A DNA stretch of 64,000 nt from Gammaproteobacteria bacterium (GTDB lineage: Bacteria; Pseudomonadota; Gammaproteobacteria; GCA-002705445; GCA-002716945). The notes below the pieces were generated by a model that saw only the letters and a program-made list of their open reading frames with translations, did not search any database and had not been told where the DNA came from. The stretch lies in the NCBI GenBank assembly GCA_018667355.1, contig JABIVC010000013.1, positions 74,305 through 138,304 on the forward strand. The letters run 5' to 3'. A program made the translations under genes and the position numbers. Position 1 is the first letter of the stretch. Each line of letters starts with the position of its first letter. Below are positions 54,120 to 55,103 of this stretch, one piece after another.

Positions 54120-55103
54120 ATGAAAAAAATAAACACACAATCATTCTGGATTAAGAAAAAAAATGATAGTTATATTAGAAATCATTCTATTAATATATCT
54201 AACAAAAGTGAACTATTAATTCAGACAATATATAGTGGTATAAGTTATGGAACCGAGAAGATTGTTTATACTGGAGCTGTCCCTGATAGTCAGAAAGAAC
54301 TAATGCGGTGCCCATATCAAGAGGGTAATTTCGGATCAGATGTTAAATATGGATATATGAATATAGGTAAAGTTATTGATGGAATCTCTAATTTCAAAGG
54401 CAAATATGTTTACACACTATTTCCTCATCAAACATTTTATATGTTAAATAAATCTGAGGTTACTTTAATCCCAAAAACAATCCCACTTAAAAGATGCTTG
54501 TTATCAGCTAACATGGAGACTGCAATAAATGGTATGTGGGACACACTACCATCATGTGGTGATAAAATCTTGGTTGTAGGTTCTGGTGTAGTTGGTTTCT
54601 TAATGGCGTATTTATTAAAATCTATACCTGGTTGTGAAATATTACTTGTCGATAGTGATTCAAAAAAAAGTAAATATTCAAAAATCTTTGATATTAATTT
54701 TAAGAATAAAATACCTAATAATTATAAAGCAAATATTATCTATGAGTGTTCAGGCAATGCAAATATCCTAAATAGCCTTAGCAAGCATGTAAAAGAAGAA
54801 GCTACTATTTGCATATTAAGCTGGTATGGAAATAATGTTTCTAAAGTGAAATTTGGAGAAGAATTTCTGTCAAAGAGAATTAAACTTATTTTTTCTCAGG
54901 TATCTAAAGTTTCACAAAATAGAAACAAATACTGGGATAATGTACAAAGAAGAGAGTTAGCAATTAGCATGCTAAATGATGATAGATTGGATAATTTGAT
55001 AGAAAGAAAAATGATAAAGTTCAATGAGCTTCCTGTATTTTTTTCTCAGATAAAGAAGGAGCAGGGCTTCTTCTGTAAAGTAGTAGATTATGGAGATAAC
55101 TGA
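54120..55103 (+). CDS. zinc-less medium-chain dehydrogenase/reductase, BchC-like
   Basis: SGISYGTEKIVYTG aligns to the BchC [15 protein letters not shown] motif where zinc-ADHs have CGxCxxDxH. Rossmann VVGSGVVGFLMAYLL. Confidence 0.6.
   Translation: MKKINTQSFWIKKKNDSYIRNHSINISNKSELLIQTIYSGISYGTEKIVYTGAVPDSQKELMRCPYQEGNFGSDVKYGYMNIGKVIDGISNFKGKYVYTLFPHQTFYMLNKSEVTLIPKTIPLKRCLLSANMETAINGMWDTLPSCGDKILVVGSGVVGFLMAYLLKSIPGCEILLVDSDSKKSKYSKIFDINFKNKIPNNYKANIIYECSGNANILNSLSKHVKEEATICILSWYGNNVSKVKFGEEFLSKRIKLIFSQVSKVSQNRNKYWDNVQRRELAISMLNDDRLDNLIERKMIKFNELPVFFSQIKKEQGFFCKVVDYGDN

Follow-up and report, generated by a model that had tools for sequence, protein, structure and literature searches.

The gene considered here lies at positions 54120 to 55103 of a 64,000-nucleotide stretch from a Gammaproteobacteria bacterium (contig JABIVC010000013.1; hereafter the window, whose coordinates are used unless another locus is named) and encodes a medium-chain dehydrogenase/reductase (MDR) that a preliminary description, made from the DNA letters, had likened to BchC, the bacteriochlorophyllide dehydrogenase of phototrophs. 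As judged from sequence, the protein belongs to a large family that is zinc-independent, is without a characterized member and is a sister lineage of BchC. It is probably the dehydrogenase of a GTP-derived pathway organized around a PTPS-IV protein, a homolog of 6-pyruvoyl-tetrahydropterin synthase (PTPS), and not BchC itself. The best overall explanation, for and against which we find the case evenly balanced, is that it acts as a zinc-independent NAD(H)-type MDR in a pathway that would turn GTP into a glycosylated, methylated and lipid-linked product of the pterin or pyrimidine type. The dehydrogenase is accompanied by enzymes for opening GTP to a diaminopyrimidine riboside phosphate and for reducing the ribosyl group of that compound, as well as by a T-fold protein that binds pterins, and fusion to the reductase occurs.

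A zinc-independent relative of BchC

The reading frame opens with ATG and specifies 327 residues. Among the NCBIfam models the only MDR entry that it matches is TIGR01202, the BchC model (E value 2.6e-13, 49.8 bits, residues 11–250), and Pfam returns just ADH_zinc_N, below threshold. An AlphaFold (AF2) model built from 29 sequences (predicted local distance difference test score 92.3, predicted template modeling score 0.91) has the two-domain architecture of the MDR superfamily, with a GroES-like domain and a Rossmann domain, and the sequence carries the GxGxxG nucleotide-binding motif. A Foldseek comparison of this model with the PDB gave 742 matches with E values of at most 0.001, and the 50 best listed are all MDR-type dehydrogenases or reductases with template modeling (TM) scores of about 0.7–0.79. 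The nearest is TarJ of Staphylococcus aureus, a ribulose-5-phosphate reductase (E value 2.6e-19), with many polyol, threonine and alcohol dehydrogenases scoring close behind. The nucleotide-binding motif reads GSGVVG and is followed by Asp178 at the end of the second strand, an acidic residue that is invariant in the family, which indicates a preference for NAD over NADP; this agrees with the classification of the BchC family as Zn-free, NAD-preferring MDRs (PMC2976758). The family comprises 977 clusters at 50% identity in an exhaustive profile search (E value of 1e-30 or below).

The zinc-binding positions were compared by aligning the window protein and BchC with E. coli Tdh, RspB and GatD. 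As BchC references we used two annotated proteins, from Tateyamaria plasmid pDOK1-4-3 and Sulfitobacter plasmid pSD118, each of which is encoded inside a plasmid-borne photosynthesis gene cluster, between crtF and bchX. The catalytic ligands Cys38, His63 and Glu64 of Tdh correspond to Ser42, Tyr79 and Met80 in the window protein, and the lobe that holds the structural zinc with four cysteines is deleted. BchC has the same serine and tyrosine at the ligand positions and has in common with the window protein a one-residue insertion in GIS-x-GTE. The window protein reads SGISYGTEK and GYM against SGIS-T-GTEK and G-Y-E in BchC, the glutamate after the tyrosine being kept in BchC and not in the window protein. 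The BchC motif of both references aligns with SGISYGTEKIVYTG..VKYGYMNIGKVIDG in the window protein, and the real BchC sequences read close to the signature that the preliminary description had given. Its statement that both proteins lack the Cys/His ligands of the classical zinc enzymes is likewise borne out, with Ser and Tyr in their place in both.

The kinship with BchC extends beyond the motif and far exceeds what chance would give. BLASTP aligns the window protein with true BchC at 22% identity over 256 residues (E value 2e-13), and hhalign matches 29 family members with eight BchC sequences over 275 columns (probability 98.3%, E value 1.8e-14). TIGR01202 matches all 29 sampled family members (best E value 4.5e-16), followed by the Tdh models, which weakly match 25–26 of the 29 (best E value 6e-11). 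With the window protein as query, BLASTP scores BchC at 56 bits, Tdh at 25 and RspB at 26 and does not match GatD; from the BchC side it ranks the window protein (55.5 bits) above Tdh (40 bits) and RspB (32 bits). The phylogeny that the preliminary description had proposed as a check was made as a small neighbor-joining tree (34 sequences, 322 columns, 300 bootstraps). It recovers the family with 100% support, the family plus its haloarchaeal homologs with 76%, and that group plus a glycosyltransferase-fused domain from Rhizobium with 100%. The whole clade is sister to BchC with 98% support relative to Tdh, RspB, GatD, another zinc-dependent alcohol dehydrogenase and QorA, in a tree that has BchC from Rhodobacterales only, few outgroups and a simple distance method. 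That the enzyme is instead an ordinary zinc-dependent dehydrogenase of the threonine or sorbitol type, its BchC motif being a coincidence, is very improbable: the weak Tdh matches and a family hidden Markov model (HMM) that scores RspB about equal to BchC speak for it, yet every canonical catalytic and structural zinc ligand is missing, the serine, the tyrosine and the insertion are common to the window protein and BchC, and both the BLASTP scores and the tree join the family with BchC. We regard this reading as largely refuted.

The sister relation should not be taken for closeness. The family HMM gives BchC 35–42 bits, no higher than the best solved zinc-dependent MDR, RspB (40.6 bits), and for this reason we describe the two as sister but distant; the label of a BchC-like sister family seems fair on these scores, yet the two are far apart and the margin is modest. 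Starting from true BchC, a homolog search recovered only near Rhodobacterales BchC proteins (at least 78% identity), with neither a diverse set nor intermediates. The Rhizobium domain forms the end of a 1079-residue "glycosyltransferase" encoded on R. leguminosarum plasmid pR132503 (locus L089, 4841–8080), next to glf and another gene of glycosyltransferase family 4 (GT4). It has Ser and Tyr at the ligand positions and scores 81 bits to the window protein, and it is the family's nearest outgroup and seems to be sugar-related.

Is the gene then a genuine bchC, whose product would oxidize a 3-hydroxyethyl (bacterio)chlorophyllide? TIGR01202 is the top curated match, and Joint Genome Institute (JGI) pipelines label some family members bacteriochlorophyllide dehydrogenase. 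The score of 49.8 bits, however, is far below the TIGR01202 cutoff of 291.25 bits, which true BchC proteins exceed (474 and 460 bits), and the identity to true BchC is just 22%. When 21 proteins of the Tateyamaria cluster (bchL, M, I, D, O, C, X, Y and Z; acsF; pucC; puhA; pufL, M and C; and six crt products) were searched against the window, BchC alone matched, at the dehydrogenase gene itself, and the other 20 found nothing, so the window holds no bchXYZ, puf, bchLNB or other photosynthesis-cluster homolog, as the preliminary description had noted. Its view of the setting as non-phototrophic also holds, with the family and its gene neighborhood found in Streptomyces, Halomonas, Agrobacterium and haloarchaea, and even in the purple sulfur bacteria Thiodictyon and Thiorhodococcus they form a separate locus. 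While BchC (MDR057; Hedlund et al. 2010) shares with the window protein the MDR fold, the motif with its insertion, the ligand replacements, the loss of the structural lobe and the NAD-type nucleotide site, it is without the family-specific loop VPxSxxxMRxPxQxGxF and the polar invariant motifs PHQ, ANMETAxNxxWD, SWYG and SQV. The residues invariant in the family are mostly polar (Glu46, Gln67, His103, Gln104, Asn131, Glu133, Thr134, Asn137, Asp141, Arg253, Ser259, Gln260 and Arg277), unlike those of BchC, and would fit a hydrophilic substrate better than a tetrapyrrole, which is very unlikely to be the substrate. The reading as a genuine bchC is thus effectively refuted, in keeping with the doubt that the preliminary description had expressed, and zinc-free chemistry as in BchC is not limited to photosynthesis. 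Three family members (P0023, P0112 and P0120) carry the automatic name [quoted passage not shown] although they are members of the present family and not BchC; the name is very probably a misannotation that is spreading, and the present result corrects such recurring mislabeling.

A conserved module around the dehydrogenase and a PTPS-IV protein

In the window, the dehydrogenase heads a translationally coupled plus-strand operon in the order dehydrogenase, PTPS-like protein, GT4 glycosyltransferase, methyltransferase-like protein and flippase-like protein, with gaps of at most 2 bases or overlaps throughout, which agrees with the operon that the preliminary description had drawn. A CDP-alcohol phosphatidyltransferase gene (CDP, cytidine diphosphate) lies divergently upstream, followed by a YceI-like gene, and a gene for a RibD_C-only reductase converges on the operon from downstream (Table 1). 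The PTPS-like protein lacks the catalytic cysteine, and the HGH motif has become HGA. The consensus of its family is FGPAQRLHGATY, read as FGPAK in the window copy, and FGPAQ is the signature of the PTPS-IV subfamily (COG0720; Phillips et al. 2012; Zallot et al. 2016), for which a neighborhood with PF00925 and RibD_C is described in the AGeNNT study of 2017 (PMC5445326). The window gene resembles this subfamily, with an FGPAQ-type signature directly after the dehydrogenase and RibD_C nearby; in the portions available of the papers on the subfamily, the BchC-like dehydrogenase, GT4, CDP-alcohol transferase and flippase-like partners are not mentioned.

Homologs were collected from one genome per species (more than 596 relatives) and by a plasmid search. 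Relatives occur in Halomonas, Chromohalobacter, Kushneria, Marinobacter and Salinisphaera, in Streptomyces and other Actinomycetota, in Vicinamibacterales, Gemmatimonadota, Burkholderiales, Rhodospirillales and Polyangiaceae, and in the purple sulfur bacterium Thiorhodococcus, to which the plasmids add Agrobacterium, Rhizobium, Methylosinus OB3b, Thiodictyon and several haloarchaea. The 85–89 loci with the module span Gamma-, Alpha- and Betaproteobacteria, Actinomycetota, Acidobacteriota, Gemmatimonadota, Myxococcota and haloarchaea. The closest relatives are an uncultured marine gammaproteobacterial metagenome-assembled genome, which is fully syntenic and 67% identical, and a single-cell genome with 49% identity, and a 37%-identical homolog on a 686-kb contig (L001) keeps the same eight functions in the same order. 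In that distant relative the GT4 and methyltransferase genes are fused into one encoding a 643-residue protein (9437–11368), which implies that both act on the same substrate.

Partners were counted by tblastn with the window proteins across 85 loci (Table 1), and additional partners were found by clustering all open reading frames (ORFs) of the loci. The tightest partner is the PTPS-like protein, present next to the dehydrogenase in all but three loci. In 44 loci a GTP cyclohydrolase II gene is found no more than 8 kb away (for example at 11041–12093 in L046 and 13621–14436 in L082), and 30 loci have a gene of the creatininase family, to which the archaeal formamide hydrolase ArfB belongs. 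Less frequent are an FkbM methyltransferase (18 loci), a sulfatase/LtaS-like membrane protein (25–27 loci) and a cytochrome b (5 loci), the last lying in some loci at a place in the module similar to that of YceI. Immediately upstream of the haloarchaeal homologs is GTP cyclohydrolase IIa, which scores 344 bits (cutoff 306) and is not homologous to GTP cyclohydrolase II; Haloarcula sp. GH36 has CDP-alcohol transferase, PTPS, methyltransferase and GT4 genes at this locus as well. In the Palleronia locus, too, the gene directly upstream of the dehydrogenase is that of GTP cyclohydrolase. The module is most complete on the plasmid pAt of Agrobacterium tumefaciens Yub001 (L098, 4181–13520), where sulfatase-like, flippase-like, CDP-alcohol transferase and ribA genes are followed by the divergent dehydrogenase, PTPS, GT4 and methyltransferase genes and finally by a RibD-family gene and cytochrome b.

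A natural fusion joins the dehydrogenase to the reductase. The 648-residue protein P0279 consists of RibD_C (about residues 89–312) followed by the dehydrogenase (326–648); its N-terminal half matches the RibD_C protein of the window, including a family-specific extension (E value 2e-29), and its C-terminal half matches the window dehydrogenase (31% identity, E value 4e-56). The window RibD_C protein has the same N-terminal extension and no deaminase domain, and its PDB matches are RibD reductase domains and archaeal diaminopyrimidinone reductases (E values around 1e-16).

The window PTPS-like protein matches PDB entry 3D7J, "Uncharacterized protein SCO6650" of Streptomyces coelicolor (E value 3.5e-27), a match that gives a name and, as far as it goes, no function. 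The likeness extends to the locus: the Streptomyces loci have, in the same order, a CDP-alcohol transferase and, divergently, dehydrogenase, PTPS, GT4 and methyltransferase, then creatininase and ribA, and in the window the RibD_C-only, GT4, methyltransferase, CDP-alcohol transferase and flippase-like genes are all found between 53371 and 59107. The window module differs from the SCO6650/SCO6655 locus in being without GTP cyclohydrolase and creatininase and in having an added YceI. The Streptomyces GTP cyclohydrolase II has methionine at the Tyr105 switch position, and we take it to be the SCO6655-type enzyme; this position is Met in 14 of the 44 loci (Streptomyces and relatives) and Tyr in 29. 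The Met form reportedly stops at the formylated pyrimidine, which, if so, would explain an ArfB-like hydrolase next to it. Creatininase/ArfB-like genes go with both the Tyr and the Met forms, for which the Met form alone would not account.

A proposed GTP-derived pathway and its alternatives

We favor a GTP-derived substrate because of this company: PTPS-IV in 82 of the 85 loci, RibD_C in 50 together with the P0279 fusion, GTP cyclohydrolase II in 44, GTP cyclohydrolase IIa in haloarchaea and the ArfB-type creatininase in 30. Homologs of three enzymes of the early archaeal and fungal riboflavin route (GTP cyclohydrolase II/IIa/III, ArfB and ArfC/Rib7) recur in the module. It differs from that route in that the later riboflavin genes are absent and the module continues with the dehydrogenase, PTPS-IV and genes for glycosylation, methylation and lipid-type steps; the reductase is without a deaminase domain, so the 2-amino group would be kept. 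In the proposed sequence, GTP cyclohydrolase II opens GTP to 2,5-diamino-6-ribosylamino-pyrimidinone 5'-phosphate, a step that in the source organism would fall to the housekeeping GTP cyclohydrolase II, and the RibD_C enzyme would then use NADPH to convert the ribosylamino group to ribitylamino. The BchC-like dehydrogenase would oxidize a secondary alcohol of the ribityl chain to a ketone with NAD+, most plausibly at C2', following the aldose–alditol–ketose logic of the polyol pathway (aldose reductase plus sorbitol dehydrogenase).

The regiochemistry of such an oxidation would resemble that of TarJ on ribitol-5-phosphate. Indeed TarJ, the top solved neighbor of the model, acts at C2 of ribitol-5-phosphate, although many other MDRs score nearly equal. 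The polyol-type MDRs (sorbitol dehydrogenase, TarJ and galactitol-1-phosphate 5-dehydrogenase) share the fold and are the nearest solved structures (TM score 0.74–0.78 for TarJ), and the chemistry proposed here is of the same type, a secondary alcohol on a phosphorylated polyol chain being converted to a ketone or back; they differ in using a catalytic zinc, whose ligands are all replaced in the window protein, and in sequence (13–18% identity). Oxidation at C2' would yield the keto-amine that GTP cyclohydrolase I makes by an Amadori rearrangement, and the ketone could close onto the 5-amino group to give a 7,8-dihydropterin with a phosphorylated side chain. We put forward this combination of C2' oxidation and pterin ring closure only tentatively, as a possibility. 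The pterin-binding PTPS-IV protein would process the resulting dihydropterin, and the GT4 enzyme and the methyltransferase would add an O-methylated sugar, a step that can be likened to the pterin glycosides known from cyanobacteria and green sulfur bacteria; when a pteridine glycosyltransferase was sought among the solved structures, the best matches of the GT4 protein were generic GT4 enzymes.

Attachment of the product to a lipid is plausible. The CDP-alcohol transferase would join it to a phosphatidyl or archaetidyl group, after which it would cross the membrane by way of the flippase-like protein, and YceI, cytochrome b and the sulfatase-like transferase would serve as periplasmic or membrane accessories; in some genomes the sulfatase/LtaS-like transferase might pass the product on, or cytochrome b might be coupled. 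The PDB matches of the CDP-alcohol transferase are weak ones to PgsA and CPT1, so neither its donor nor its acceptor can be read from them. That the module as a whole is a pterin route without GTP cyclohydrolase I, ending in a methyl-glycosylated pterin on an outward-flipped membrane phospholipid, is a speculative extension that we consider rather unlikely.

The preliminary description had suggested that a BchC relative was recruited to another secondary alcohol, of a sugar or cyclitol. The kinship holds, the protein being a zinc-less MDR whose closest characterized relative is BchC; the sugar or cyclitol is probably wrong, the partners favoring a GTP-derived ribityl-aminopyrimidine or pterin chain. 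If the GT4 enzyme and the CDP-alcohol transferase make a glycolipid head group, a dehydrogenase that oxidizes or reduces a sugar or cyclitol hydroxyl on its glycosyl or inositol part would account for these two conserved partners, for the inositol monophosphatase and PfkB kinase in the Palleronia locus, for the Gfo/Idh/MocA oxidoreductase in the Haloarcula locus, for the distant clade member fused to glycosyltransferases beside glf in Rhizobium and for the polyol and sugar dehydrogenases that are the nearest solved MDRs. We nonetheless consider it unlikely, since the tightest partner is PTPS-IV and not GT4, the sole fusion found within the family is with a RibD_C pyrimidine reductase, and in the haloarchaeal and Palleronia loci the gene directly upstream of the dehydrogenase is a GTP cyclohydrolase; the co-travel of the GTP cyclohydrolase, ArfB-like and RibD_C genes would be left unexplained.

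The close pairing with PTPS-IV raises another possibility, that of a ketoreductase acting after PTPS-IV in the manner of sepiapterin reductase, where it would reduce a carbonyl on the pterin side chain. The two genes are adjacent and nearly always together, PTPS is followed by a carbonyl reductase in tetrahydrobiopterin synthesis, and MDR reactions are reversible. PTPS-IV, however, is without the catalytic cysteine and one of the three zinc-binding histidines required of a diketo-forming PTPS, the invariant acidic residue that follows GxGxxG points to NAD and not NADPH, and the fusion partner is the RibD_C reductase and not PTPS-IV, all of which makes this order of events improbable.

Streptomyces and haloarchaea make coenzyme F420, and GTP cyclohydrolase II/IIa, the ArfB-like hydrolase and RibD_C correspond to the first archaeal-type steps toward riboflavin and FO, which would fit a module that supplies or modifies a riboflavin or deazaflavin (F420/FO) precursor, with the dehydrogenase acting on intermediates of the 5-amino-6-ribitylaminouracil type. 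An unpublished remark places PTPS-IV in F420 synthesis (PMC5041015). Against this, FO synthase (CofG/H, FbiC), lumazine synthase and RibB are not recurrent across the 85 loci, the GT4, methyltransferase, CDP-alcohol transferase and flippase-like genes are without a role in riboflavin or F420 synthesis, and some taxa that have the module are not known to make F420. We regard a riboflavin or F420 assignment as distinctly improbable.

Several considerations weigh against the GTP-derived pathway as we have drawn it. Neither a GTP cyclohydrolase nor an ArfB-like gene was found in the 64-kb window, and for the source organism the link to GTP is therefore one of orthology. Since members of the RibD_C family can also be reductases of the dihydrofolate or pterin type, the reduction might take place at a later point than proposed, and CDP-alcohol transferases do not always act on lipid substrates. 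In the structural comparison TarJ does not stand out clearly from other MDRs, and the glycosyltransferase-fused Rhizobium member of the zinc-less clade keeps a sugar substrate possible. A role of PTPS-IV in F420 synthesis, as remarked in PMC5041015, would imply different chemistry. Finally, a full-text literature search found no paper describing the dehydrogenase family, its substrate or the full module.

What the analysis brings together is a dehydrogenase family of about 1000 clusters and a module that extend across many bacterial phyla and haloarchaea, with no assigned product found for either. The structure of SCO6650 and the classification of PTPS-IV are already on record, as reportedly is the biochemistry of SCO6655, in each case without a function. 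The RibD_C fusion and the two unrelated types of GTP cyclohydrolase give a concrete hypothesis, that of a new GTP-derived metabolite, which may be a lipid-bound pterin; if so, it would be a new class of lipid-anchored pterin in bacteria, haloarchaea and marine gammaproteobacteria. This hypothesis can be addressed in tractable hosts such as Agrobacterium, Streptomyces and Chromohalobacter.

Organization of the locus and flanking genes

Table 1. Genes of the module in the window, with the evidence for each assignment and its occurrence across 85 loci
Gene product	Positions	Strand	Evidence	Loci with partner
Zinc-ligand-less NAD-type MDR dehydrogenase, first gene of operon	54120–55103	+	ORF, sub-cutoff TIGR01202 match, AF2 model, alignment	
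PTPS-IV-type T-fold protein (PTPS homolog)	55106–55504	+	Pfam PTPS, 56.5 bits	82/85, adjacent to dehydrogenase
GT4 (group 1) glycosyltransferase	55501–56499	+	Glycos_transf_1, 94 bits	70/85
Class I S-adenosylmethionine (SAM) methyltransferase-like protein	56444–57358	+	Weak Methyltransf_23 match; GxGxG-type motif IIDLGSGNGSF	50/85
Flippase-like polytopic membrane protein (LPG_synthase_TM / TIGR00374)	57358–58251	+	PF03706, 125.6 bits; TIGR00374, 57.8 bits (cutoff 43.2)	44–45
RibD_C-only pyrimidine reductase homolog	58238–59107	-	RibD_C, 115 bits; convergent with operon	50/85
CDP-alcohol phosphatidyltransferase family membrane protein	53371–54099	-	PF01066, 59.6 bits; divergent from dehydrogenase	68/85
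YceI-like periplasmic lipid/isoprenoid-binding protein, module accessory	52800–53384	-	YceI, 129 bits	13/85

The dehydrogenase and PTPS-IV genes are 2 bp apart, the GT4 start overlaps the PTPS-IV stop by 4 bases, and the YceI gene overlaps the 3' end of the CDP-alcohol transferase gene. The true start of the methyltransferase-like gene may be the second methionine, at 56486; its positional orthologs are annotated as class I SAM-dependent methyltransferases. The CDP-alcohol transferase and dehydrogenase genes diverge from start codons that are only 20 bp apart (54100–54119), and both promoters must therefore lie within the adjoining coding sequences. The window has a G+C content of about 30%, from which the source is probably a streamlined marine gammaproteobacterium, a SAR86-like assignment being no more than a guess. 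In such AT-rich DNA promoter and terminator scans are uninformative (82 sites against 69 expected). No Rfam element or riboswitch was found upstream in the window or in eight related loci.

The module is flanked by housekeeping genes (ccmF, dsbE, ccmH, TrhO, HisI, a MOSC protein, an EamA transporter, MoeB and MoaA). Following YceI on the same strand without a gap are a Methyltransf_3 O-methyltransferase of the caffeoyl-CoA type (52131–52799, minus strand; 230 bits) and TrhO (51448–52146, minus strand). Adjoining the RibD_C gene on the other side is a monofunctional HisI, phosphoribosyl-AMP cyclohydrolase (59345–59800, minus strand; 144.8 bits against a cutoff of 126). A purine-ring-opening enzyme beside a GTP-derived module is suggestive, and the pairing is kept just in loci L003 and L004. 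We weighed HisI, the MOSC protein, the O-methyltransferase and TrhO as possible parts of the module and rejected them, since they are syntenic in the two closest relatives only; the O-methyltransferase might still be an additional tailoring enzyme.

Just downstream of the module lie a MOSC/YiiM-like gene (59987–60646, minus strand), a 104-residue ORF with no NCBIfam match (61661–61975, plus strand), and MoeB and MoaA (61941–63729, plus strand), which belong to the synthesis of molybdopterin, itself a GTP-derived pterin; their proximity to the module is probably a coincidence of synteny. On the far side, a cytochrome c maturation block (47683–51451, plus strand) encodes a CcmF/NrfE-family heme lyase, DsbE and a CcmH/NrfF-like protein, and the 342-residue ORF that follows the last of these, without an NCBIfam match, may by its position be CcmI-like.

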